Assembly (NCBI GenBank): GCA_045803515.1
Contig: JBJMOX010000341.1
Location: 4,180 to 68,179, forward strand
Direction: 5' to 3'
From: Gemmatimonadales bacterium
GTDB lineage: Bacteria; Gemmatimonadota; Gemmatimonadetes; Gemmatimonadales; GWC2-71-9
DNA length: 64,000 nucleotides
Shown here: piece after piece, positions 4,790-41,947 of the stretch
Position numbering within the stretch: the first letter of the stretch is position 1
Layout of the letters: each line of letters begins with the position of its first letter
The notes under the pieces: model-generated
Databases searched by the model: none
Told to the model about the DNA's origin: nothing
The model's input: the letters and a program-made list of their open reading frames with translations, nothing else
Program-made: the position numbers and the translations under genes

Positions 4790-5230
4790 TCATTCCAGGC
4801 CCGCTGCTCCCGCGGGACGCTTCCGCCAGCGGTATCCCGCGGCCAGGCGTACCCCGCCGCCGATTCCCCCCTCCAGAAACCATCCGGAGCGACTCCCTGG
4901 ACCCGCCTCCAGCCCGAGCGTGAGGACCAGATATCCTTCATCCGCCGGACCTCCCACCACCGCGAGGCCGCCCGCCCCGTACAGCGCCGCGCCCCGCTGC
5001 CGGTCGGGATTGAGGAGAAAATGCGCCAGGAGCTCGCCCCGCCACGCGAGGTCGCCCCCGCTGGCGCCGGCACCGGCCGCGACCGAGACGCGGGTCCGAA
5101 GCGAGGTGCGCAAAGCCGCGTAAGCTCCGCCGATCACCAGCGCGGGGTCGGAGGCGGTCGTGGTGGCCTGGAGCCCGATCTCACGCACCTGCTGAGCAGC
5201 CAGCGGCTGGGCGACGAGCAGCAGCGCCAT
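4790..5230 (-). CDS. Secreted Gly/Ala-rich protein (possible small outer-membrane beta-barrel)
   Basis: Start chosen at MALLLVAQPLAAQQ (signal-peptide-like). Alternating Gly/Ala/aromatic segments. The upstream part of the 212-aa ORF overlaps the OsmC gene region. Confidence 0.5.
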   Translation of the reverse strand: MALLLVAQPLAAQQVREIGLQATTTASDPALVIGGAYAALRTSLRTRVSVAAGAGASGGDLAWRGELLAHFLLNPDRQRGAALYGAGGLAVVGGPADEGYLVLTLGLEAGPGSRSGWFLEGGIGGGVRLAAGYRWRKRPAGAAGLE

Positions 5231-5240
5231 CGCCCAGCCG

Positions 5241-5651
5241 TCAGCCCAGGGTGAGCCCACGGGTGATCCGGATGTCGGGCGCGAGCGAATGCAGGACCGA
5301 ACAGTACTTCTCGATGGAGAGATCGATCGCGCGGAGGGCTTTGGGCTCATCCAGCCCCTCGCCCGCGAGGTGATACTGCAGGTGAATCGCGGTGTAGCGC
5401 CGCGGCTCTTCCTCCCGCCGCTCGCCACTCGCTTCCAGTCGGAACTCCGTGGGGCGCACCCGCATCTTTCCCAGGATGAGCACCACGTCCGCGCCGGTGC
5501 AGGCGGCGGCCGCGAGCAGGAGCGTCAGCATCGGGCCCGGAGCGACGGCGTTGTCGCCGTCGACGGTGGCCTCGGGTCCGCCCGGCTCGCCGCCGCGGAA
5601 CACCAGCCCCTCCTGCCAGCGGAGACTCACGCGTTTGGTCTCGGCCGTCAC
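5241..5651 (-). CDS. OsmC/Ohr-family peroxiredoxin-like protein
   Basis: The C-terminal 136 aa of the 304-aa ORF has an OsmC-like layout with two Cys (AAACTGADV and KYCSV). The GTG start forms a GTGA overlap with the upstream gene stop. Confidence 0.7.
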   Translation of the reverse strand: MTAETKRVSLRWQEGLVFRGGEPGGPEATVDGDNAVAPGPMLTLLLAAAACTGADVVLILGKMRVRPTEFRLEASGERREEEPRRYTAIHLQYHLAGEGLDEPKALRAIDLSIEKYCSVLHSLAPDIRITRGLTLG

Positions 5652-6261: not shown

Positions 6262-7032
6262 ATGCTCGACACTGCGGTCATTCCCTGCGGCGGACGCGGC
6301 ACCCGGCTGCTGCCGATCACCCGGTGGTTCCCCAAGGAGCTGCTTCCGGTCGGGCTCAAGCCGATCCTCTACTGGGCCCTTGATGAAGCCGCCGACGCGG
6401 GACTGCTCCGCGCCGTCGTCGTGACCAATCCGCACAAGCCCATGCTCGAGGCCGCCGCGCGGAACTATCCCGGGCCGCTGGAGCTCGAGTTCGTACCGCA
6501 GGACCACCCCCGCGGGCTGGGCGACGCCTTGCTCCGCGTCCGTGACCACCTGGCCGGCTCGCCCTTCCTGGCCCTCCTGCCCGATAATCTCTTCAGCGGG
6601 GGGAACCCCAGCGCGCAGGTCGCGGAGGCCTATCGCGCGTCCGGCCTCGCCACCGTGCTCCTCGCCCAGATTCCGCGGGAGGCCGCCGCAACCAAGGGCG
6701 CCACCGGCCGGGCGGCGATTCGGCAGGCCGATGATGGTTCGTTGCGAGTGATCGAGATCGCCGACAAGAGCACCGGCCGCTTCGACACGGCGGGGCTCGA
6801 GGCGGCCGTCACTCCGATCGGCCGGATGGCGCTGCCGGCGGCAGTCTTCGAGGAGCTCGAAGAGCTCGGCCGCCAGCTGGAATCCGGCGCCGAGCTCGAC
6901 GACGTGCCGCTGCTCCAGCGGCTCGCCCGAAGGAACGCGCTGGCCGGCGTGATCAGCCCCGCGCGGTTCTTCGACGTGGGAGTGCCCGAAGGGTACCGGG
7001 AGGCGGTGGCCACCTTTCCCCCTAGCGCCTGA
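6262..7032 (+). CDS. Sugar-1-phosphate nucleotidyltransferase (GalU/UTP-glucose-1-P uridylyltransferase-like)
   Basis: N-terminal AVIPCGGRGTRLLPITRWFPKELLPV matches the G-x-G-T-R-x-LP nucleotide-binding signature. Confidence 0.75.
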   Translation: MLDTAVIPCGGRGTRLLPITRWFPKELLPVGLKPILYWALDEAADAGLLRAVVVTNPHKPMLEAAARNYPGPLELEFVPQDHPRGLGDALLRVRDHLAGSPFLALLPDNLFSGGNPSAQVAEAYRASGLATVLLAQIPREAAATKGATGRAAIRQADDGSLRVIEIADKSTGRFDTAGLEAAVTPIGRMALPAAVFEELEELGRQLESGAELDDVPLLQRLARRNALAGVISPARFFDVGVPEGYREAVATFPPSA

Positions 7033-7048
7033 CCGCCGAGACTCCCGC

Positions 7049-7369
7049 GTGCAGCCCGCCTTTAATCACCGCCTCCTCGAGCTCACCTCGCTTCCCGGCG
7101 CCCGCCTGGCCGACGCCCACGGCCTCTCGGCGATGGTCGTGGCGGCCGCGGGCGCGGTCGGGATGCCGACGCTGGGGCCGCCGGTGGTGCGGGACGGTCC
7201 CGCCGGGATCGTGATCGCGATGCTCTGCCGCGAGGGCCACATCGTGCTCCACACCGCGCCCGCGGAGGGACTCTGCGTGGTGGACATCGTGGCCCGCGCC
7301 CCGGCCGACGTGCGGAAGGGCGTGGAGGTGATCACGCGGCGCCTGGGCGTGCCGGCGGAGCCGGGCTAG
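7049..7369 (+). CDS. S-adenosylmethionine decarboxylase-like (SpeH/SpeD-fold) protein, apparently non-processing
   Basis: GIVIAMLCREGHIVLHTAPAEGLCVVDIV aligns by eye with the class-1 AdoMetDC core ([25 protein letters not shown]). It has Gly where the self-cleaving Ser is expected. Confidence 0.45.
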   Translation: MQPAFNHRLLELTSLPGARLADAHGLSAMVVAAAGAVGMPTLGPPVVRDGPAGIVIAMLCREGHIVLHTAPAEGLCVVDIVARAPADVRKGVEVITRRLGVPAEPG

Positions 7370-19455: not shown

Positions 19456-20361
19456 GTGCAGGTCATCCTCCTCGGTACCGCCGCTGGCGGCGGCTTTCCC
19501 CAATGGAACTGCTGGTGCCCCTCCTGTCGTGTGGCGCGGGCTGACCCCCGGCGTGCCCTTCCGCGATCACAATCCTCGGCCGCGGTGAGCTCGGACGGGG
19601 AGCGCTGGTTTCTGTTGAATGCCTCGCCCGACGTCCACGCCCAGCTCAGCCGTGTGCCGACGCAGCCCGCGGGCGTGCGCCACGTACCCGTCGAGGGAAT
19701 CGTCCTGACCGATGCCGAGCTGGACCATACCCTGGGCATCGTCCTGCTCCGGGAGGCGAGACAGCTGCAGGTCTGCGCCACCCACGCGGTCCGTCAGGTG
19801 CTGGAGGCCGATTCACGCATCCTTCCGGTCACCCGGGCCTTCGCCGAGGTGCGCGTGACCGATCTGCCCTCCCACGGCGCCATGGCCCTGTGTTATCGTG
19901 ACGGACGCGACAGCGGGATTGCCGTTTCCAGCTTCGAGGTGCCCGCCGGCCCCCCGCGGTTCGCCCGCGAGGAGCTGCCGGGCCATACCGTGGGTCTGGT
20001 GCTGACCGATCAGGCCAGCGGCGCCTCCTGTGCGTTCGTGCCGGGCTGTGGCGGTCTGGACGACCATCTGCTGGAGCTCCTCGCCGGGACCGACCTCGTC
20101 CTGTTCGATGGCACCTTCTGGACGGACGACGAGCTGATCCAGCTTGGCATAGGCGAGCGGACCGCGCGGCAGATGGACCACCTGCCGGTCTCCGGCCCCG
20201 ACGGCAGCCTCGAGCGGCTGGCTACGCTGCCCTCGAGACACCGGGTGTACACCCACATCAACAACACCAATCCCATGCTTCTGGAAGACTCTCCGGAGCG
20301 GGCCCTGGTGGAGCGCCGCGGCTGGCGGGTTGGGGCCGACGGCATGGCATTCACCCTCTGA
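19456..20361 (+). CDS. pqqB: PQQ biosynthesis protein PqqB (metallo-beta-lactamase fold)
   Basis: The N-terminus LLGTAAGGGFPQWNCWCPSC is the hallmark PqqB motif. 301 aa, GTG start. Confidence 0.92.
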   Translation: MQVILLGTAAGGGFPQWNCWCPSCRVARADPRRALPRSQSSAAVSSDGERWFLLNASPDVHAQLSRVPTQPAGVRHVPVEGIVLTDAELDHTLGIVLLREARQLQVCATHAVRQVLEADSRILPVTRAFAEVRVTDLPSHGAMALCYRDGRDSGIAVSSFEVPAGPPRFAREELPGHTVGLVLTDQASGASCAFVPGCGGLDDHLLELLAGTDLVLFDGTFWTDDELIQLGIGERTARQMDHLPVSGPDGSLERLATLPSRHRVYTHINNTNPMLLEDSPERALVERRGWRVGADGMAFTL

Positions 20362-20372
20362 CCGGCACCCCG

Positions 20373-21125
20373 ATGACCGCGACCCTTCTGGCCTCGAAGC
20401 TGGCGACCCCACCGGCCCCGCCGTTCCCCCGATTGGAGCGGGCGCTCGGTCCGGGTGAGCTGGAGGACGCCCTCCGGTCGTTCAACGGCTCGTACTACGT
20501 CGAGCACCCGTTTCACCAGCTGATGTATGAGGGGCGACTCACCCAGCGCCAGTTCCAGGGCTGGGTGGCGAACCGCCTGGCGTACCAGCGGGTGGTGCCC
20601 CGGAAGGACGCGGCCATTCTGTCGAACTGTCCCGATCCCCAGGTCCGCCGGGAGTGGATCCAGCGGATCATCGACCACGATGGCACCGAGCCGGGAACCG
20701 GCGGGATCGAGCTCTGGGTGCGACTGGGCGTCGCCCTCGGCGTTCCTCGGCAGGAGATGGAGGACGAGCGGCACGTGCTGCCGGCCGTGCGGCTGATCTG
20801 CGAGTCGTACGTGACCTTCTGCAGGAACAGGCCATGGCAGGAAGCGGTCGCCTCCTCGTTGACCGAGCTGTTCGCGCCCAAGATCCATCAGCAGCGGATC
20901 CAGTCGTTTCCGCTGCACTATCCCTGGATCCCGCCGGAGGCGCTCGACTACTTCAAGAGCCGCCTGGTCCAGGCACCTCGGGACGTGAGTCACGGGCTCA
21001 GCATCGTGAAGACCTGGGCCACCACTCCGGAGCGGCAGCAGAAGGTGTTCGAGGCGCTGGCCTTCAAGCTCGAGATGCTGTGGGCCATGATAGACACCAT
21101 CCACAACGCGTACCGCGAGGAATGA
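20373..21125 (+). CDS. pqqC: Pyrroloquinoline-quinone synthase PqqC
   Basis: 250 aa. Length, position in the operon and a heme-oxygenase-like helical sequence (YYVEHPFHQLM) match PqqC. Confidence 0.9.
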   Translation: MTATLLASKLATPPAPPFPRLERALGPGELEDALRSFNGSYYVEHPFHQLMYEGRLTQRQFQGWVANRLAYQRVVPRKDAAILSNCPDPQVRREWIQRIIDHDGTEPGTGGIELWVRLGVALGVPRQEMEDERHVLPAVRLICESYVTFCRNRPWQEAVASSLTELFAPKIHQQRIQSFPLHYPWIPPEALDYFKSRLVQAPRDVSHGLSIVKTWATTPERQQKVFEALAFKLEMLWAMIDTIHNAYREE

Positions 21126-21394
21126 GCGGCGTGACGATCTCGCTCGACAACGTGCCCCGGCTCTGGCGGCTGGCCCGGCTCGATTACGACCCGGCGCGGC
21201 AACGGCCGGTGCTGTTGTATCCCGAGGGGGCGGTGCTGCTCAACGACACCGGCCGCGCCATCCTGGAGCTGGTGGATGGCAGCCGAAGCGTCGCCCAGAT
21301 CGCGGCGGAGCTGAGCGCGCGGTACGAGACCGACGTGACCGCCGACGTGACCGCATACCTCTCGCATCTGGCGGAGAGAGAGCTGATCCAATGA
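21122..21394 (+). CDS. pqqD: PqqA-binding chaperone PqqD
   Basis: 90 aa. LLYPEGAVLLNDTGRAILELVDGSRSVAQIAAELS matches the PqqD/RRE fold signature. ATGA overlaps with both pqqC and pqqE. Confidence 0.9.
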   Translation: MSGVTISLDNVPRLWRLARLDYDPARQRPVLLYPEGAVLLNDTGRAILELVDGSRSVAQIAAELSARYETDVTADVTAYLSHLAERELIQ

Positions 21395-22478
21395 CCACTG
21401 AGCGCCCCACGACTTTGCTTGCGGAGATCACCCACCGCTGTCCCTTGCATTGCCCCTACTGCTCCAACCCGCTGGATCTTCTCCGGGCGGACAGCGAGAT
21501 CGGCACCGAGGACTGGAAGCGAGTCTTCAGCGAGGCCCGCGAGCTCGGGGTGCTGCAGCTCGGCCTGTCGGGCGGCGAGCCGCTGGTGCGCAAGGACCTC
21601 GAGGAGCTGGCGATCCACGCCAGGAGTCTGGGGCTCTACACCACCCTGGTGACCTCCGGGCTCGGTCTCACCCGAAAGCGGGCGGAAGCGCTGCGTGCGG
21701 CCGGGCTGGAGCACGTGCAGATCTCGATCCAGGATTCGGATCCAGTGTCGGCCGAGCGGATCGCGGGAGTGAGCTCGGTCAAGCAGAAGCTGGCGGCAAT
21801 CGCTCTGGTGAAGGAGCTAGGCTTCGCGTTCTCGGTCAACGTGGTGCTGCATCGCGCCAACCTCGACCGGATCGGGGAGATCATCGATCTCGCGGCGAGC
21901 CATGGCGCGGACCGCCTCGAGCTCGCCAACACCCAGTACTACGGGTGGGGGCTCAAGAACCGGAGCTCGCTGATGCCGTCCAGGGAGCAGGTGCTGGCCG
22001 CGAAGGAGATCGCCCAGGATCGGATGCAGCGCTACAAGGGACGGATGCAGATCACCTTCGTGCTGCCCGATTACTTCGAGGAGCTGCCCAAGGCCTGCTA
22101 CGGCGGGTGGGGTCGGTACTACATCGTGGTCTCTCCCGACGGGAAGGCGCTGCCGTGCCACGGGGCTTACGCGATTCCCTCGCTCGAGCTCCCCAGCGTG
22201 CGGGAGCACTCGGTGCGGTGGATCTGGCACGAATCGTCCGCCTTCCAGGCGTTCCGGGGCGATTCGTGGATGAAGGAGCCGTGTCGCAGTTGTCCTCGAA
22301 AGGCCATCGACTTCGGGGGCTGCCGCTGCCAGGCACTCGCGCTCACGGGCGACGCGGCGAACGCCGATCCGGTCTGCACGCTGAGCCCCTTCCGCCATCT
22401 GATCGACGAGGCGCTTGAGGGGCACGCCGGCGCCGACGAGTACGCTTACCGGGAAATCGCGGCCGAGCCCCTGCGCGC

Positions 22479-22482
<4 letters not shown>
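21391..22482 (+). CDS. pqqE: Radical SAM/SPASM enzyme PqqE
   Basis: The CPLHCPYC cluster motif (CxxxCxxC) lies near the N-terminus. C-terminal auxiliary Cys cluster (CRSCPRKAIDFGGCRCQA). 363 aa. Confidence 0.92.
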
Positions 22483-23401
<919 letters not shown>

Positions 23402-23405
<4 letters not shown>

Positions 23406-24211
23406 GCGTGGCGAGCACCATCTACGGGATCGTCGCCCGTGATCTCGCGCGAACCACCCGCCAGACCAGTCGCCTCCTGGGTGGCCTGGCGCGTCCCTTC
23501 ATGTGGCTCCTGCTGGTCGGCACGGGGTACAACGCGATCGCCCGGTTGGAGAACGGCATCTCCTACCGGGCGTTCGTCTTTCCCGGGGTCGTCATCATGG
23601 CGTCCCTCTTCGGTGCCATGTTGACGGCGATCGCGACGGTCTACGACCGCGAGTTCGGGATGCTCCGTCTCATGCTGGCGAGTCCCGCGGGTGTGCCCGC
23701 GGTCCTCATGGGCCGGGCTCTCGCCGCGGCGCTGATCGGATTCACCCAGGGAGCCGTCGTGCTCCTCTTCGCGCCTTTGGTCGTGCCGGGGTCGGGATCG
23801 GCACTGCTCGCCGGGGCTGCGGCGCTGGCCCTCTCCTCCGCCAGCAGTGCGATGCTGGGATTGCTTGTGGCCGCCCGGTTGACCTCGGTGGAGAACTTCG
23901 CCGGAGTGATCAACGTGGTGCTGTTTCCACTGCTGTTCGTAAGCGGCGCGCTCTATCCGACCAGCGGAATGCCCCGCGTCCTTCGCGCGCTCGCCCGGGT
24001 GAACCCGGTGACCTTCCAGGTCGATCTCATGCGACATGCCTTCCACCAGCCGGTGGAGTTCAGCCCGACGACGGGGGTGCTGGTGCTGGCGGCGACGATC
24101 ATCGTGGCGTTCGGACTCACCGCGTGGCTGTTCGATCCGGAGCAGCGGTTTGTCGGGAGAGTGACTAGGGGCAGGCCGTCGGCTGGGGCGCAGCCAGGCG
24201 GGAAAGCGTGA
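23402..24211 (+). CDS. ABC-2 type transporter permease
   Basis: 269 aa with about 6 TM segments. The ATG overlaps the ATPase stop (ATGA). Typical ABC-2 layout. Confidence 0.8.
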
Positions 24212-24999: not shown

Positions 25000-26628
25000 T
25001 CAGGCTTCCAGCATGAACGGGTAGCGATAGTCCTTCGGAGGCGCGAGAGTCTCCTTGATGCTCCGAGGTGAAACCCAGCGCAGCAGGTTGAGGATGGAGC
25101 CCGCCTTGTCGTTGGTCCCGCTGGCGCGCGCGCCGCCGAACGGCTGCTGTCCGACCACGGCACCGGTGGGCTTGTCGTTGACGTAGTAGTTCCCGGCAGC
25201 GTTGCGAAGCGCACGATCGGCCTGGACCAGGGCGCCACGGTCCTGCGCGAAGACGGCGCCGGTGAGGGCGTAGGGGCTGGTCCGATCCACCAGGCCGAGC
25301 GTCTCGCTCCAGCGAGTCTCGGGATAGACGTGCACCGTGAGCACCGGCCCGAAAATCTCCTCGCACATGAGCCGGTACGAGGGGTCCTCGGCCTGGAGCA
25401 GGGTGGGTTGAACGAACCAGCCCACGCTGTCGTCCGTGCCGCCGCCCGCCACGACCTGGACGCCGGGGTCGCGCCTGGCCTCCGCGAGATGGTCGCGGAG
25501 CCGATTGAAGGCGCGTTGGTCGATCACCGCGCCCATGAAGTTCCGGAAGTCGGCGACGTCGCCCATGCGGATGTCCTCGATCATCCCCACCACGCGATCG
25601 CGCACGGCCGGCCAGATCGTGTCGGGAATGTACGCCCGTGAGGCGGCGCTGCACTTCTGCCCCTGGTACTCGTAGGCGCCGCGCACCATCGCCACGGCCA
25701 GCGCGTCCACCTCGGCACTCGGGTGGGCCAGGATGAAGTCCTTGCCACCCGTCTCCCCCACGATGCGGGGATAGGCGCGGTAGCCCTCCAGGTTGTCCCC
25801 GATCGTCCGCCAGAGGCTCTGGAACACCGTGGTCGAGCCGGTGAAGTGAATGCCGGCGAGATGGGGGCTCCCGAGGAGCGTCCGGCTGATCTCGATGGCG
25901 TCTCCCGGCACGAAGTTGATCACGCCCGGAGGCAGGCCGGCCTCCTGAAGGAGCCGGTAGAAATGCCAGTTGCTCAGCGCGGCCGAGTGGGCGGGCTTCC
26001 AGACCACCGTGTTCCCCATGAGCGCGGGAGCGGTGGGAAGATTGCCGCCGATCGCGGTGAAGTTGAACGGCGTGATCGCGTAGACGAAGCCTTCGAGCGG
26101 GCGGTGGTCCATCCGGTTCCAGGTGCCCGGCGACGAGTCAGGCTGCTCCCGGTAGATCCGTTCGGCGAAATGCACGTTGAATCGGAGGAAGTCGATCAGC
26201 TCGCAGGCACTGTCGATCTCCGCCTGGAACGCGGTCTTGCTCTGGCCGAGCATGGTGGCTGCGTTGAGCCGTTGCCGCCAGGTGGTGGCCAGGAGGTCGG
26301 CCGCCTTGAGGAACACTCCGGCGCGGTCCTCGAACCGCCAGTGCGCCCAGTCGCGCTGGGCTTCGACCGCGGAGGTCACCGCGGCGTCGATCGTCGCGCG
26401 GTCGGCGTGATGGAGAGTGCCCAGCACCCGCGCGTGGCAGTGGGGCGAGATCACGGGCTCGGTGACGCCGCTACGGATCTCCCGTCCGCCGACCACCGCT
26501 GGGATCTCCGGACGCTCGCCCCCGACCGCGGTGAGCGCGCCTTTGAGCGCCGTTCGCTCAGGGCTGCCGGGAGCGTAGCCCAGGACGGGTTCGTTGCGGG
26601 GCTGGGGAATGTTCGCGAAACCGCTCAT
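25000..26628 (-). CDS. pruA: L-glutamate gamma-semialdehyde (1-pyrroline-5-carboxylate) dehydrogenase
   Basis: 542-aa aldehyde dehydrogenase. Catalytic context EYQGQKCSAASR and the N-terminal FANIPQPRNEPVLGYAPGSPER are typical of stand-alone P5CDH. Confidence 0.85.
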   Translation of the reverse strand: MSGFANIPQPRNEPVLGYAPGSPERTALKGALTAVGGERPEIPAVVGGREIRSGVTEPVISPHCHARVLGTLHHADRATIDAAVTSAVEAQRDWAHWRFEDRAGVFLKAADLLATTWRQRLNAATMLGQSKTAFQAEIDSACELIDFLRFNVHFAERIYREQPDSSPGTWNRMDHRPLEGFVYAITPFNFTAIGGNLPTAPALMGNTVVWKPAHSAALSNWHFYRLLQEAGLPPGVINFVPGDAIEISRTLLGSPHLAGIHFTGSTTVFQSLWRTIGDNLEGYRAYPRIVGETGGKDFILAHPSAEVDALAVAMVRGAYEYQGQKCSAASRAYIPDTIWPAVRDRVVGMIEDIRMGDVADFRNFMGAVIDQRAFNRLRDHLAEARRDPGVQVVAGGGTDDSVGWFVQPTLLQAEDPSYRLMCEEIFGPVLTVHVYPETRWSETLGLVDRTSPYALTGAVFAQDRGALVQADRALRNAAGNYYVNDKPTGAVVGQQPFGGARASGTNDKAGSILNLLRWVSPRSIKETLAPPKDYRYPFMLEA

Positions 26629-26705
26629 CGTGGGTCCTGGATCGAAGAGGGCGAAAGCTAATGGGATTCAGGGGATTCGGTCACGTCCTTGCCGGAGTCA
26701 CCCTT

Positions 26706-26958
26706 GCTGGAACAATTCACCACGAGGACGCGAACGTTGAAGTTCATCAGCAAACCAGGGGACAAGCGCTGGGGCACAGGCGGAATGGCCGCTCCTAACA
26801 TTCTCGCTGACAGGTTGTTGGGATACCTATATGAGCCCCTTGGCCTTCCCGGAAGGCGTACTTGCTTTTCCATCCTAGAAAGGTTGAGAACGTCCATCCT
26901 ATCCCGTAGTCCGTGCGACCTCCGTGAACTCCGTGTCTCCGTGGTGAATTGTTCTGGC
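26706..26958. repeat. Long-range inverted repeat closing a 253-nt low-GC intergenic element (candidate structured RNA or MITE-like element)
   Basis: Perfect 15-nt arms GAACAATTCACCACG (26710-26724) and CGTGGTGAATTGTTC (26940-26954). Pairing extends to 19 bp plus a further 7 bp if G-U pairs on the plus strand are allowed. Internal hairpin GCCTTC-CCG-GAAGGC at 26843-26857. Confidence 0.6.
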
Positions 26959-27018
26959 TGGAAACCCGACCCAACTATCCCAAGCCGGAGGGGTGAACCT
27001 CAATAGATGGCCTCGCTC

Positions 27019-27972
27019 CTATCTCCCCACGCCTGTGGGAGGCTTTCCCGGACCCCCGATGACGGGCGGGCCCAGAGTCGTGAGTCCGTCAGCCGTGAGC
27101 GTGGCGCGTCCTTCCTCCGAGAGAATGAACCGGACGAAGGCGAGAGCGGTGGCCGGGTGGGGAGCCGCGGTGGGTATCGTCAACGCATAGACGATCGGCT
27201 CCCCCCGAAACTCGACCGAGTCGGCCCCCGGCCCACCGGCTCCCGGGACCCGCACCGATGCTTGAGCGTACCACGAGGCGAGGTGCGGATCGCTCAGGTC
27301 GACTTGGGGCGGGAGATCCACGTGCTCGAGCCCGGCCGTCTTGGCGATGGAAACGTAGGACCACGCGTAGTCCAGCTCCCCGCTCTGCACCAGGGCGGTC
27401 AGGTCCGCCTCCTTGGGGCGGAGGTATCTCGGCGGCTCCGCCCGGTCCAGCCGGGCTGCCAATCCGGGCTGGTGATAGAACTTCTCGGCCAGCTGGAAGA
27501 CCATCAGTGTGCGATACCCGTTCGGGTCCAGCGCCGGATTGGAATGGCCGCTCCGCACCCCTGGCCGGAGGAGCACCTGCCACCAGTTCCGCCCGTTGAT
27601 CTCCTTGGCACCGGCCGACTGCTCGGTGTACACCAGCACCATCGCGTTCTTGGCGAAGCTGGCGTACCAGGTGGCGTACTTGGGGACGAGCAGCTTGGGA
27701 ATGATTCCGTAGTCCGCGACCCCGAGCACGTCGGGGACCTTGCCCAGCTCGGTCAGCTTCCGGGCCGCCTCGACGCTGCCGGAGTTCTCCTGGGCCGGTT
27801 GCACACCCGGGTGCCGCGCGACAAACGCCCGCAGCAGGTCGCTGAACGGGCGTGCGAGGCTCCCGGCGTTATAGACCACCAGCGGGCCGCTGAGCGGCTC
27901 CTGCGCTTGCAGGAGCGGCGAGGTGATGGTCAGCAGGAATGGCAGCGGACCGAGCAGCCGAGGAATGCGCAT
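27019..27972 (-). CDS. Periplasmic molybdate/tungstate-type (ModA/WtpA-like) substrate-binding protein
   Basis: Signal peptide MRIPRLLGPLPFLLTITSPLLQAQ. LVVYNAGSL, GSVEAARK and DYAWSYVS resemble oxyanion-binding PBPs. The start overlaps the porin stop (TGATG). Confidence 0.65.
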   Translation of the reverse strand: MRIPRLLGPLPFLLTITSPLLQAQEPLSGPLVVYNAGSLARPFSDLLRAFVARHPGVQPAQENSGSVEAARKLTELGKVPDVLGVADYGIIPKLLVPKYATWYASFAKNAMVLVYTEQSAGAKEINGRNWWQVLLRPGVRSGHSNPALDPNGYRTLMVFQLAEKFYHQPGLAARLDRAEPPRYLRPKEADLTALVQSGELDYAWSYVSIAKTAGLEHVDLPPQVDLSDPHLASWYAQASVRVPGAGGPGADSVEFRGEPIVYALTIPTAAPHPATALAFVRFILSEEGRATLTADGLTTLGPPVIGGPGKPPTGVGR

Positions 27973-28916
27973 CAGAACCTCACCTGTAGCTGTGAGAGAA
28001 GGAGACCCGTCGTGGTGGCGGGCGTCCCGCTCTTTCGGGACAGGTAATCGAGCATGAGCTTCGCCTTCCCGGCGGCGAAGAACAGGTTCGTGCCGGCTCC
28101 CCACGCGGATGGGGTCTGCGCGCCCGGCGCGCTGGTACGCTCGAACTCCTCGTAGCGCGCCACGAGCTGAATCAGCGGGTTCACCTGGTAGGCACCCAGG
28201 GCGTACCACCCGTGATCGTCACCCACCTGCTGATCGCGGTGTTGTCCCACGTACTCCGTGCGGAGGGAGAGATGGGCACCCTCGTAGTTGGCTTCGAGCC
28301 CATAGCGGGTGCTGTCAGCGAAGTACCGCGCGCCCTCCACGCCGAGGGCCAGGCGCGGCACCGGACGCACCACCAGCCGTCCAACGCCGAGCGCGCTGGA
28401 ATCGCGATTGGCGGTGACATTCTGACCCTCGCCGTTGAAGACGCCCAGCCACATCGTCACCGCCTTCCGCACGCGGTACTCCACCATCGCTCCGATGTCC
28501 CGCTTCGGGGCGAGCGAATCCACGACCATCGTGCGGTCGGGCATCTCGAGATCGGCGAGGGAAGTGACGAACTCCCGGGTGAACGGGGTCTTGAACTGAC
28601 CGGCCTGCAGCGCCCAGGCGTCGCGCGCGTACCGGGCGTAGGCGTCCTGCAGCGAGACGCTCGCCTTTCCGGTACCGACGGAGCCGGTGCGGAACTCGCC
28701 TTGGATGCGCCAGGTCAGCGCCGGCGTCACCTCACCGTAGGCCGCGAGCCGGGCGCGATTGATCGACGCCGTGAGGCCGACCCGGTGCTGATACGTCTCC
28801 CGCACCTGCAGGTATCCGGTGAAGCGAACGGCGGGACCGGCCGCAGGCGATTGCGCGCCGAGACTCCCCGGGACCAGCAGACCGAACACCAGCGGCAGGA
28901 CTCGGCAGGGGAGCAT
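27972..28916 (-). CDS. Outer-membrane porin (phosphate-selective porin O/P-like)
   Basis: Signal peptide, alternating beta-strand pattern and C-terminal aromatic residue (QLQVRF). Resembles OprO/OprP-type anion porins. Confidence 0.65.
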   Translation of the reverse strand: MLPCRVLPLVFGLLVPGSLGAQSPAAGPAVRFTGYLQVRETYQHRVGLTASINRARLAAYGEVTPALTWRIQGEFRTGSVGTGKASVSLQDAYARYARDAWALQAGQFKTPFTREFVTSLADLEMPDRTMVVDSLAPKRDIGAMVEYRVRKAVTMWLGVFNGEGQNVTANRDSSALGVGRLVVRPVPRLALGVEGARYFADSTRYGLEANYEGAHLSLRTEYVGQHRDQQVGDDHGWYALGAYQVNPLIQLVARYEEFERTSAPGAQTPSAWGAGTNLFFAAGKAKLMLDYLSRKSGTPATTTGLLLSQLQVRF

Positions 28917-28941
28917 CCCGCGAACCTATCACGCCCAAGGT

Positions 28942-28965
28942 CGATAGGCAATTACCTGCCTATCG
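28942..28965. promoter_or_regulatory. Perfect 9-bp inverted repeat between the ModE-like gene and the porin gene (operator or attenuator candidate)
   Basis: CGATAGGCA-ATTACC-TGCCTATCG. The right arm overlaps the ModE-like stop codon. 26 nt upstream of the porin ATG. Confidence 0.45.
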
Positions 28966-29346
28966 CTCGAGCGCCCGCTCGAACGCGGCGCGGCCCAGCC
29001 GGTCGACCTCCCGCCGCCACCGGGCGAAGACCCTGACCAGTCGCCGCGCCTCCGGGGTGAGCCGGGCACTTCCTCCCGACTTCCCGCCTCGGCTCGTGGT
29101 CAGGACCTCATGTCCAAGCACCTGCTCCATTCGCCGGATGCGGTTGAGGCAGGTGCGATAGCTCCATCCCACGGCCTTCCCGCCTCCGCGGATGGTGCCG
29201 CTCTCGTCCACCCCGGCGAGAAAACGAAGGTAGTTCGGTCCCATGAGAAAGACCCCGTCCCAGGTCAGCCACACCTTGTGCTTGGGGGCGAGGTGTGCCG
29301 CCAGGCCGGCCGAGGACTTGCCACGAGACCCCGGTAGAGTCGGCAC
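28960..29346 (-). CDS. ModE N-terminal-like winged-helix regulator without Mop/TOBE domains
   Basis: 128 aa. GTIRGGGKAVGWSYRTCLNRIRRMEQVLGHEVLTTSRGGKSGGSARLTPEARRL parallels the ModE HTH region. No C-terminal molybdate-binding domain. Confidence 0.6.
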   Translation of the reverse strand: MPTLPGSRGKSSAGLAAHLAPKHKVWLTWDGVFLMGPNYLRFLAGVDESGTIRGGGKAVGWSYRTCLNRIRRMEQVLGHEVLTTSRGGKSGGSARLTPEARRLVRVFARWRREVDRLGRAAFERALER

Positions 29347-29350
29347 CGGA

Positions 29351-38081: not shown

Positions 38082-38106
38082 CTTTAAGACGTTGGACAAT
38101 CGACTT

Positions 38107-38173
38107 GTGGCGATTTGCGCTGCTTGCGGGCCACGTTAAACAACCGCTAAAACGCTCACCCTTGAGGCGTTTT
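38107..38173 (+). promoter_or_regulatory. Structured metH leader: stem-loop plus mutually exclusive terminator-like hairpin (riboswitch/attenuator candidate)
   Basis: GTGGC (38107-11) pairs with GCCAC (38130-34) around an 18-nt loop. AAAACGC (38149-55) can pair either with GCGATTT (38110-16) or with GCGTTTT (38167-73). The latter forms a 10-bp bulged hairpin followed by a T-run. Confidence 0.35.
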
Positions 38174-38209: not shown

Positions 38210-41200
38210 GTGCTCGTCGATCACATCCCCACTGCGGACACCCGAACCACACTCTGGACCCGCGCCCGCCGGCTCACCGAGCTGGAGGCGTTGCTGGCCC
38301 GGCGCATTCTGGTGCTGGACGGTGCCATGGGGACGATGATCCAGACCTACGGACTGGGCGAGCGCGACTATCGCGGTGAGCGCTTTGCCGACTGGCCCCG
38401 GGAGCTCCGGGGCCATAGTGACCTGCTGACTCTCACCCAGCCCGGCATCATCGGCGCGATCCACGGCGCCTATCTCGATGCCGGGGCTGACATCATCGAG
38501 ACCAATTCCTTCACCTCCAACGCCATGTCCCTGGCCGACTATGGGATGGAGGGGCTGGTCTACGAGCTGAATCGTGCCGCGGCCCGCGTGGCCCGCGACA
38601 CCGCCGACGCGTACGAGCTTCGCGACCCGGACACGCCCCGGTTCGTGGCGGGCGTGCTCGGACCGACCAATCGCAGCGCGTCGCTCTCCCCGGACGTGAA
38701 TGACCCCGGATTCCGAAACGTGAACTTCGATGAGCTGGTGGCCACGTACACGGACGGGGCGCGCGGCCTGATCGACGGTGGGGCGGACCTGCTGATGGTG
38801 GAGACCATCTTCGATACGCTCAACGCCAAGGCGGCGCTCTTCGCCGTCGACCAGGTGCTCGAGGCGGCGGGCATCCGGCTGCCGGTCATGATCTCCGGCA
38901 CCATCGTGGACGCCAGCGGGCGGACGCTCTCGGGCCAGACCACGGAGGCGTTCTGGCACTCGGTCGCGCACGGGCGCCCGCTGAGCGTGGGCCTCAATTG
39001 CGCGCTCGGCGCCGAGGCACTCCGGCAGTACGTGCAGGAGCTCTCCCGGGTGGCGCCCGTGTTCGTGAGCACGCACCCCAATGCCGGCCTGCCGAACGAG
39101 TTCGGCCAGTACGACGACACGCCCGAGCACATGGCCCGAGTGCTTCGGGAGTTTGCCGAGAGCGGCCTGGTGAACTTCGTGGGGGGCTGCTGCGGGACCA
39201 CGCCGGCCCACATTCGCGCCATCGCGGAGGCCGTGCGCGGCCTGCCGCCGAGGAAGCGGCCGGTGGTCGAGCCCAAGTGCCGCTTGAGCGGACTCGAGCC
39301 GCTCACCATCGGACCGGAGAGCATCTTCGCCAACGTGGGGGAGCGGACCAACGTCACCGGGTCGCGGAAGTTCGCCCGGTTGATCCTGTCCGGCGACTAC
39401 GAGGCCGCCGTCGAGATCGCGCGCCAGCAGGTGGAGAGTGGCGCGCAGATGATCGACATCAACATGGACGAAGGGATGCTGGATTCGCAGCAGGCGATGG
39501 TGAAGTTCCTGCAGCTCATCGCAGCCGAGCCGGACATCAGCCGGGTGCCGGTGGTGCTCGACTCCTCCAAGTGGTCGGTCGTCGAGGCGGGGCTCAAGTG
39601 CGTACAGGGAAAGGGTATCGTCAACTCGATCAGCCTCAAGGAGGGCGAGGAGGCGTTCGTCCAACACGCCACGCTGGTCCGGCGCTACGGTGCCGCGGTG
39701 ATCGTGATGGCGTTCGACGAGCGCGGCCAGGCGGACACGGCCGAGCGGAAGGTCGACATCTGTAGCCGATGCTACCGGATCCTGACCCAGCGGGTGGGCT
39801 TCCCGCCGGAAGACATCGTCTTCGATCCGAACATCTTCGCGATCGGGACCGGGATCGAGGAGCACAACAACTACGCGGTCGAGTACATCGAGGCCACCCG
39901 CCGGATCAAGGCGGCCCTGCCCCATGTGCTGGTGAGCGGCGGGGTCAGCAACGTCTCCTTCTCCTTCCGAGGCAACGATCCGGTGCGTGAAGCGATTCAC
40001 GCCGTGTTCCTCTACCATGCGATCGAGGCGGGCATGGACATGGGGATCGTGAACGCCGGGCAGCTGCCGATCTATGCCGACATCCCTCCGGACCTGCTCG
40101 AGCGGGTGGAGGACGTGGTGCTCAACCGCCGGCCCGACGCCACGGACCGCCTCCTCGCGGTCGCCGACTCGGTCCAGGGACAGGCCGCGGCGCAGGCCAA
40201 CGATCTGAGCTGGCGCAATGCACCGGTCAACGAACGGCTGGCCCACGCGCTGGTCGAAGGCATCGCGGACTTCGTCGTCGAGGACACGGAAGAGGCGCGC
40301 CACCAGGCCGAGCGGCCGATCCACGTGATCGAGGGTCCGCTCATGGCCGGCATGAACATCGTCGGGGACCTCTTCGGGGCGGGGAAGATGTTCCTGCCGC
40401 AGGTCGTCAAGAGTGCCAGGGTGATGAAGAAAGCGGTGGCGCACCTGATCCCTTACATCGAGGCGGAGCGGGACCCGAGCGCCGTGGCCAAGCCCAACGG
40501 CCGGGTGCTGCTGGCCACCGTGAAAGGGGACGTCCACGATATCGGCAAGAACATCGTCGGCGTGGTGCTCCAGTGCAACAACTACGACGTCATCGATCTC
40601 GGCGTGATGGTGCCGTGCGCCAAGATCCTGGAGACCGCCCGGCGCGAGCGGGTGGACATCATCGGGTTGAGCGGCCTGATCACCCCGTCGCTGGAGGAGA
40701 TGTCGTTCGTGGCGAGCGAGATGCAGCGCGAGGGATTCGAGATCCCGCTGCTCATCGGCGGCGCCACGACCTCGCGGGTGCACACGGCCGTCAAGATCCA
40801 GCCGCAGTACCAGGGGCCCACGGTCCACGTGCTCGATGCCTCCCGCGCGGTCGGGGTGGCTGGAAGCCTGCTCAGCGATACTCTGCGGGACGAGTTCGCT
40901 TCCGGTATCCGCACCGAGTACCAGGAGCTGCGGGAAGAGCGGAGCCAGCGCCGGCCGGAACAGCGACGGCAGTCCATCGCCGACGCCCGGCGGAACCGAC
41001 TGGCCATCGACTGGTCCGGAGTGGCTCCGCCCGAGCCCTGCGCTCCCCGGCTGACGGTCCTGGACGACTACCCGCTGGATGACCTGGTGCCCCGGATCGA
41101 CTGGACGCCGTTCTTCCAGACCTGGGAGTTGGCGGGCCACTATCCGGACATTCTCCAGGACCCGGTTCTGGGCGTGGCGGCCACGAGCCTCTTCCGTGAC

Positions 41201-41947
41201 GCGCAGGAGCTGCTCGAGCGGATGGTGCGGGAGCGGCTGGTGCGGGCCCGGGGAGTGTTCGCCTTTTTCCGGGCGAACAGCGTCGGCGACGACATCGAGC
41301 TCTTTGCTGACGCCGACCGGAGCCGATCGGTGGCGGTCATCCACACCTTGCGCCAGCAGATGCTCAAGCCGCCTGGCCGGCCCAATCTTGCGCTGGCGGA
41401 TTTCGTCGCTCCGCGGGAGACCGGCGTGGCCGATTGGGTCGGCGGGTTCGCGGTCACGACGGGGGTCGGGCTCGACCGCCTGGTGGCCGAGTTCGAGGCG
41501 GCGAGCGACGACTACTCCGCGATCCTGGCGAAGGCCCTGGCGGACCGGCTGGCCGAGGCGTTCGCGGAACGGCTGCACGAGCGGGTACGGAAAGAGTTCT
41601 GGGGATACGCCCGGGACGAGTCGCTGGACAACAGCGCGTTGATCCATGAGAAATATCAGGGAATCCGGCCGGCGCCCGGGTATCCCGCCTGTCCGGACCA
41701 CACCGAGAAGCGCACCCTGTTCGACCTGCTGCAGGCCGAGTCCAATGTGGGCATCTCGCTCACCGAGAGCTTCGCGATGCTGCCCGCGGCGGCGGTCAGC
41801 GGCTACTACTTCTGGCATCCGCAGGCCCAGTACTTCGGCGTGGGCAAGATCGAGCGCGACCAGGTCGAGGACTACGCCCGCCGGAAAGGGATGGACGTGG
41901 CGACAGTGGAGCGCTGGCTGGCCCCGAACCTGAACTACGAGCGTTAG
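38210..41947 (+). CDS. metH: Cobalamin-dependent methionine synthase MetH
   Basis: 1245 aa. Contains Hcy-binding, pterin-binding, B12-binding ([11 protein letters not shown], the DxHxxG motif) and AdoMet-activation domains. GTG start with GGAG 6 nt upstream. Confidence 0.95.

Follow-up and report, generated by a model that had tools for sequence, protein, structure and literature searches.

The wtpA-P5CDH spacer

We analysed a stretch of 64,000 nucleotides from the genome of a Gemmatimonadales bacterium (assembly GCA_045803515.1, contig JBJMOX010000341.1, positions 4,180 to 68,179 of the forward strand), hereafter the window, and in particular the 390-bp spacer at window positions 26629-27018 and the inverted-repeat-bounded element that it contains. 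The spacer separates two minus-strand genes. Downstream lies the gene of a 1-pyrroline-5-carboxylate / L-glutamate gamma-semialdehyde dehydrogenase (25000-26628), a 542-aa aldehyde dehydrogenase called P5CDH in source names; upstream lies the gene of a WtpA-type tungstate/molybdate binding protein (27019-27972, 317 aa from the Met at 27972). Protein relatives agree with these identities, which had been proposed in an earlier, sequence-only reading of the DNA, and the closest relatives' proteins are named Gemmatimonadales in their sources. The same reading had interpreted the spacer as the locus of a structured small RNA (sRNA) on the plus strand, with a miniature inverted-repeat transposable element (MITE) as the alternative.

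The features on which that proposal was built are all present at the coordinates given. The spacer is poor in GC (0.545-0.585, vs about 0.68 in its surroundings). An exact 15-nt inverted repeat is found at 26710-26724 / 26940-26954, with 215 nt between the arms; the 15-mer has no third site in the window, and by our arithmetic the chance expectation of such a repeat within 390 nt is about 7e-5. Direct reading, an inverted-repeat search and folding all extend the pairing beyond the exact repeat, giving an imperfect stem of 27 positions with a left half at 26706-26732 and a right half at 26932-26958, neither half being assigned to a strand. On the plus strand, four positions of this stem are G-T pairs (26708/26956, 26709/26955, 26726/26938 and 26730/26934), and the single mismatch, at 26725/26939, is A-C, which would become G-U on the minus strand. 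The interior contains the announced hairpin GCCTTC-CCG-GAAGGC (26843-26857), two copies of the direct repeat TCCATCCTA (26869-26877 and 26893-26901), a run of CCGTG pentamers (26911-26943) and the pairing segments AGTTCA/TGAACT. The statement that the spacer holds no credible open reading frame (ORF) must be corrected: the minus strand has a 79-codon ORF (26658-26897) that holds a truncated remnant of a PDDEXK_3 gene.

An insertion in one sub-lineage

We compared 17 Gemmatimonadales loci in which wtpA lies directly upstream of the P5CDH gene. The spacer between the two genes measures 31-51 bp in 14 of them, and long spacers were found only in the window (390 bp) and in the loci L005 (506 bp) and L006 (532 bp), where an alignment shows that the three are homologous along their full length. 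The low-GC spacer is therefore an insertion of about 345 bp that is present in one sub-lineage. It occupies 26661-27005 (minus strand), i.e., nearly the whole spacer, when delimited against the empty sites of relatives. Among these, L131 and L134 have an empty site and encode a binding protein 90-91% identical to that of the window, and the gene map for the binding protein P0128 implies a spacer of 46 nt; homology to L001 ends at 26661. The outermost ends of the insert, ATTGAGGTTCA... and ...TGAATCCCAT, are partly complementary to each other. The stretch of approximately 45 nt that precedes the P5CDH start codon is conserved whether or not the insert is present.

Decayed arms and a nuclease remnant

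The inserts of L005 and L006 are bounded by an inverted repeat of 39-40 nt that is 92-95% complementary. Its arm reads (A)TTCACCACGGAGACACGGAG-NN-CA(C/T)GGAGGT(C/T)GCACGGA, with the mirror image at the other end. The window has one intact arm, on the wtpA side (26910-26948, minus strand), whose reverse complement is TTCACCACGGAGACACGGAGTTCACGGAGGTCGCACGGA: TTCAC followed by three CACGGAG heptamers. This arm is identical to that of L005 and nearly identical to that of L006. Over 26910-26954 the minus strand reads GAACAA, TTCAC and then the three heptamers, which form the only triple hexamer array of the CTCCGTG/CACGGAG kind in the window. What had been described as CCGTG pentamers corresponds to the three CTCCGTG heptamers in this arm.

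The other arm, TTCACCACGAGGACGCGAAC on the P5CDH side (26716-26735, plus strand), is eroded when compared with the family consensus and with the L005/L006 alignment. Only its first 9 nt are canonical (TTCACCACG, 26716-26724); past these, four transitions and one transversion separate it from the consensus, and about 65-70 nt are deleted relative to L005 and L006. The stem of L006 is longer and has fewer mismatches than that of the window. These comparisons show that the closing stem in the window is the residue of an original stem of about 40 bp. Of the other elements described in the interior, the AGTTCA/TGAACT segments pair the heptamer spacer with the NFN codons of the nuclease remnant, and the central hairpin is conserved in neither L005 nor L006.

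In L005 and L006, the DNA between the arms holds fragments of a PDDEXK_3 / GxxExxY gene, which lies on the same strand as its flanking genes. The ORF of L006 matches PF13366 (E = 3.5e-17, profile positions 55-108 of 117) and TIGR04256 (E = 5.3e-18), and L005 retains the N-terminal part (E = 0.008 with Pfam, 4.8e-4 with a custom hidden Markov model (HMM) of the family). The remnant in the window (26724-26813, minus strand) was recognised by tblastn with intact members and by DNA homology to L006. It has an N-terminal motif, LSARMLGAAIPPVPQRLSPGLL (26813-26748), 54% identical to the protein of L120, and a C-terminal motif, GLLMNFNVRVL (26756-26724), and so retains the family motifs LS..IGAAI...GPGLL and GLL.NFN. 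Both lie in one frame within the 79-codon ORF, which is not a functional gene, and about 77 central codons are missing between them, the catalytic core included. The nuclease copy of the window is thus shown to be a pseudogene fragment that lost its core by deletion. The alignment of the window with L005 is gapless across the deletion junction; therefore the deletion is probably common to both.

Two other candidates were discarded. A match to 'RMEKQVRLPGRPRG' at 26876-26835 is out of order and, with E = 0.09, probably due to chance. An origin of the spacer from a pseudogenised wtpB was rejected, since the homologous copies carry PDDEXK_3.

A dispersed family of hairpins

At least 120 stretches of the representative genomes of GTDB, in more than 10 phyla, contain the exact 20-mer TTCACCACGGAGACACGGAG of the arm; by our estimate, chance would give about one match. 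According to record titles, the hosts include Acidobacteriota, Planctomycetota, Chloroflexota, Gemmatimonadota, Armatimonadota, Alpha-, Beta- and Gammaproteobacteria, Polyangiaceae, Geobacteraceae, Nitrospirota, Cyanobacteria, Bacteroidota, Lentisphaeria, Kiritimatiellia, Marinimicrobia and SAR324, and two isolates in culture, Geothrix limicola and Longilinea arvoryzae. The similarity between family members starts exactly at TTCACC, and the flanks upstream of it are unrelated. Among the matches listed, 91 of 132 have a mirror arm within 2.5 kb, and 70 unique elements are gene-less and span 60-260 nt. Elements of 445-583 nt enclose a PDDEXK_3 gene, which is intact in a few of them; in the 596-nt element of L125, the enclosed ORF has no Pfam match. 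L109 is an internally deleted element of the L099 type, like the copy in the window. Several genomes carry two or three exact copies of the 20-mer at unrelated sites, and one metagenome-assembled genome has two copies (L028 and L044) that are 87% identical and have unrelated flanks. The 5' flanks of the 70 short elements tend to be rich in purines and the 3' flanks in pyrimidines, and the two flanks of an element often complement one another.

Rfam models applied at gathering scores to 18 family loci matched nothing at the element, and there is no Rfam family for these hairpins. Our literature search returned no paper giving the hairpin sequence, and only incidental mentions of GxxExxY / PDDEXK_3. 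Neither the spacer nor an intact element had a blastn match among plasmids. A search of the PDB sequences with an intact PDDEXK_3 gave no match, and no S23p-like motif was present in about 1 Mb of family loci. A metagenome scan for the 20-mer together with a conserved interior word gave 0 matches, in a collection that evidently lacks the samples of L005 and L006.

Elements of the CACGGAG type often hold a second inverted pair or tandem arrays made of other heptamers (e.g., GCAAAAT, TGTTGAT, CACAGAT, CACTGAT and GTGGTCA), as seen in L125 (around 5000-5614), L024, L021, L050 and L080. These additional pairs and arrays suggest nesting or preferred insertion into hairpin loops. In L127 (around 6400-7065), a solitary TTCACCACGGAG arm immediately precedes a gene for a putative endonuclease of the Uma2 family (PF05685), and no partner arm occurs within 900 nt of it. 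In many of the loci L011-L130, stop-to-stop frames run through the arms, which gives N-terminal tails such as FTTETRR, SPRRHG and HHGDTE and C-terminal tails such as LRVSVV, SVSPW and PCLRGE. Such arm-derived peptides are expected to contaminate predicted proteomes.

GxxExxY genes identified independently of the 20-mer

We also studied PDDEXK_3 genes chosen without reference to the 20-mer. The plasmid set consisted of the eight records with a match, six of which are annotated as 'GxxExxY protein'. On genome contigs, the gene of L059 (3605-4018) is accompanied by CACAGAG arms and that of L050 by CACCGAT arms. Only two PDDEXK_3 loci were found in viral contigs: L162, with TTCACCAC and CACAAAG arms, and L163, with arrays of TTCCCGCAGAT. 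On plasmids, the gene of a Bacteroides replicon (L164) has arms of 30 nt that are 90% complementary (TTCACCACAGAGGACGCAGAGGACACGGAG), inverted repeats bracket those of Bernardetia (L166), Sphingomonas (L167) and Treponema (L169), and a hairpin adjoins that of Gemmatirosa (L165). The heptamer varies between elements, but within any one element the arms still complement each other. In each of the six annotated records, all annotated neighbours share the orientation of the GxxExxY gene, and so do the flanking genes in the window.

In the Sphingomonas parapaucimobilis plasmid (L167, NZ_CP155749.1, 482837-483265), the GxxExxY gene, with TTCACGCGAAGG... arms, is flanked by fabD and fabG, all three on one strand, and its annotated coding sequence runs through the 3' arm. 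The hairpins of the family extend or create spurious ORFs (tails HHGDTE... and ...SVSPW, for example) and split operons such as fabD-fabG, and both effects are relevant to genome annotation.

Origin of the spacer

We conclude, with a probability of about 85%, that the spacer is the decayed relic of a small selfish element, MITE-like and of the type of an intervening sequence (IVS), in which a PDDEXK_3 gene stood within inverted heptamer repeats. The relic has the same orientation as wtpA and the P5CDH gene. The original element would have been a nuclease gene enclosed by arms of TTCAC and three CACGGAG heptamers. Its insertion between wtpA and the P5CDH gene, the deletion of the core of the gene and the erosion of one arm by point changes and a deletion are shown by the comparisons above. 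If the analogy with the IVS of Coxiella burnetii holds, the element would be transcribed from the minus strand within the wtpA-P5CDH transcript, its stem would be a substrate of RNase III, and the relic would be neutral, or nearly so, at this locus.

Several observations weigh against this conclusion. The window has a single copy of the arm in its 64 kb. The inserted DNA reaches 35-65 nt past the conserved arms on both sides, which blurs the limits of the mobile unit. No target-site duplication is visible at the junction of empty and filled sites, or in the 70 short elements. The ORF of the window has no significant match to Pfam, NCBIfam or the custom HMM, so that identification of the remnant depends on DNA homology to L005/L006 and on short tblastn matches. 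Three of the eight plasmid-borne GxxExxY genes (L168, L170 and L171) have no bracketing repeat that we could find. Finally, the likeness to the rRNA IVS is one of architecture, taken from the description in one paper (PMC4990558).

The proposal of a plus-strand structured sRNA, closed by the stem, antisense to both flanking genes and either 6S-like or novel, now appears very improbable. It draws on the fold of the plus strand, which at -104.6 kcal/mol is better than that of any of 200 shuffled sequences (z = -3.85), and on the four of five non-Watson-Crick stem positions that are G-T on this strand. Yet the minus strand also beats its shuffles (z = -2.63), because a long inverted repeat folds better than shuffled sequence on either strand, and the z-score is thus driven by the repeat; the whole insert folded as minus strand gives z = -1.7. 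The wobble positions had been read as a sign of selection on a plus-strand transcript, which does not survive comparison with the family. All five non-Watson-Crick positions are transitions, and one favours the minus strand. At the three inner ones the eroded left arm has moved away from the consensus and the right arm has kept it; the two outer ones differ from the state common to L005 and L006. The split of four plus against one minus is not significant. In the 40-nt repeat of L006 both G-T positions are on the opposite (sense) strand, and in 12 gene-bearing elements the stem transitions are divided into 13 wobble-sense and 18 antisense. Since they show no strand bias, the data do not indicate selection on a plus-strand RNA. 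With 6S RNA and the other sRNAs of Rfam, the predicted fold shares a long closing helix with internal loops, but it differs from them in having no covariance-model match (nothing in the spacer at E up to 10, and nothing there at gathering scores in a search of the whole window), no sigma-70-like promoter or intrinsic terminator in a scan of the spacer, and no conservation at orthologous loci. The element is missing from 14 of the 17 wtpA-P5CDH loci, and in L005 and L006 its interior, central hairpin included, is not conserved.

Two further explanations give the repeat a function. One is that the element was co-opted as a minus-strand hairpin of the wtpA-P5CDH transcript, the residual stem being retained because it offers RNase III a cleavage site, terminates or attenuates transcription, or stabilises the RNA and so uncouples the two genes. 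Hairpins with such roles are known from mRNAs, as REP and Correia elements, and from rRNA, as IVS. The co-orientation of the element with both genes, mirrored by the six annotated GxxExxY records, would fit this role, as would the purine-rich 5' and pyrimidine-rich 3' flanks of the family, which recall bidirectional terminators, and the cleavage of the analogous Coxiella stem by RNase III (PMC4990558). However, the locus gives no sign of selection: the three homologous copies decay differently, the stem of the window falls behind that of L006 in length and pairing, most relatives lack the element, and no site resembling an intrinsic terminator was detected in the spacer. We therefore regard co-option as unlikely. 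The other explanation is a device at the DNA level, in which two inverted operator sites 230 bp apart would let a regulator loop the DNA upstream of the P5CDH gene. Two identical sites of 15-19 bp upstream of a catabolic gene are what one would expect of it. But the same sequence ends unrelated elements beside unrelated genes in many phyla, relatives with a 31-51-bp spacer have neither site, and the conserved 45 nt before the start codon are there regardless of the insert, which makes this the least probable of the explanations that we considered.

The relic of a nuclease-bearing element thus remains our preferred explanation, and since the stem is a relic there is no new RNA gene to annotate in the window. 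As such the feature is ordinary; it is its family that looks under-described. More tentatively, we propose that hairpins made of TTCAC and three heptamers, with or without PDDEXK_3, form a class of mobile palindromic elements that is spread over many phyla and has mostly escaped description, the intergenic relatives of rRNA IVS. The PD-(D/E)XK nuclease might recognise and act on the heptamer arrays of its element, or on the hairpin once extruded, and so mobilise itself and the gene-less copies, and insertion might favour hairpin loops in transcribed operons. We consider this scheme possible rather than probable. If true, insertion into hairpin loops in operons would account for the complementarity of the flanks, for the nesting and for the sense orientation of the genes.

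Other features of the window

The surroundings of the spacer vary between relatives. The closest relatives of the P5CDH gene, L001 and L002 (92-93% identity), lack an entire segment of 2.7 kb (26662-29348) that includes the spacer, wtpA, a porin gene and a modE-like gene. The segment is present in L005 and L006 and absent in L001-L004, where PAP2 adjoins the P5CDH gene directly. Within it, the porin gene (27972-28916) and the short modE-like gene (28960-29346, TIGR00637, E = 5.7e-20) are both on the minus strand, and wtpA has no adjoining wtpB or wtpC. A perfect palindrome, CGATAGGCA-ATTACC-TGCCTATCG, lies at 28942-28965, flanked by the modE-like stop codon and the porin start, and is a candidate operator of the ModE type for the porin-wtpA pair.

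Two riboswitch models matched elsewhere in the window. A c-di-GMP-I aptamer is found at 950-1033 on the minus strand (48.4 bits, vs a gathering score of 35). The match of the SAM_alpha model at 38097-38171 on the plus strand is barely above threshold (37.6 vs 36), in a host that is not an alphaproteobacterium, and lies directly upstream of an ORF of 1245 aa (38210-41947). Synteny with L001 suggests that this ORF may encode a methionine synthase of the MetH type. A conserved cluster at 19456-24211 encodes Lactamase_B_2, TENA/THI-4, PqqD and radical SAM-SPASM proteins, together with the ATPase and permease of an ABC transporter. These assignments were made by synteny with L001, L004 and L008, and the cluster as predicted resembles those for the maturation of peptides (of the type of ribosomally synthesised and post-translationally modified peptides).

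Comparison with known systems

The closest architectural match that we found is the IVS in helix 45 of the 23S rRNA of Coxiella burnetii, a selfish element of 428 nt with a 28-bp stem of terminal inverted repeats (PMC4990558). In it, an AG-rich leader and three tandem GACAGAT heptamers precede a small ORF, S23p, which has the sense orientation of the host transcript and is decaying by deletions; its GC is below that of the genome, and RNase III cuts at the first repeat (PMC4990558). The family described here has the same purine-rich leader and three tandem heptamers in the 5' arm (CACGGAG, CACAGAG or CGCAGAT, where Coxiella has GACAGAT), terminal inverted repeats that pair into a stem of about 28-40 bp, an ORF of about 120 aa that is oriented as the host transcript and decays by deletions, a GC content under that of the host genome, and a sporadic distribution suggesting horizontal spread. 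It differs in location and in cargo. An rRNA IVS sits in helix 9, 25 or 45 of a 23S or 16S rRNA gene, is transcribed within the pre-rRNA and is cut out by RNase III without religation. The window element lies between wtpA and the P5CDH gene, and Rfam finds no rRNA in the window; the enclosed gene encodes a PDDEXK_3 nuclease and not the four-helix bundle of S23p. The origin and mobility of rRNA IVS have been open since about 1990, and the hypotheses are listed in PMC4990558. Here an IVS-like architecture is seen outside rRNA and in more than 10 phyla, and its nuclease cargo, its many gene-less derivatives, its nesting and the polymorphism of filled and empty sites in close relatives make comparative and biochemical tests possible.

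As to the cargo, the GxxExxY family (TIGR04256 / PF13366) is listed as being of unknown function, and no transposase activity is known for it (PMC3424549). The copy of L006 matches both models of this family; that of the window retains the terminal motifs but, with its central codons gone, has no match to the whole domain.

Small palindromic repeats are well known in the intergenic regions of bacteria, e.g., the Correia elements and the REP/BIME sequences with their RAYT genes. Each REP or Correia family is confined to one genus or taxonomic family. Like these and like MITEs, the present elements are small, bounded by inverted repeats, intergenic, probably co-transcribed with host genes and dispersed in many copies, most of them gene-less and a minority enclosing the gene of an enzyme that acts on DNA. 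As in REP/RAYT systems, the sequence of the arm differs by sub-family while both arms of each element are complementary. Unlike REP and Correia sequences, however, this family has an arm that is conserved at 20 of 20 nt across more than 10 phyla, and its associated gene is a PD-(D/E)XK nuclease, not a Y1 (IS200/IS605-like) transposase. The alternative offered by the sequence-only reading, a MITE, was therefore near the mark. The window element has the terminal inverted repeats, the small size and the lack of a functional transposase of a MITE, and it is a decayed, non-autonomous member of a dispersed family; this family does not appear to derive from a classical transposase element, and the nuclease domain of about 120 aa that the family encloses has no demonstrated transposase activity. 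We file it neither as an rRNA IVS, because it lies outside rRNA, nor as a classical MITE, because neither a target-site duplication nor a transposase was found: it is an element built like an intervening sequence that behaves like a MITE.

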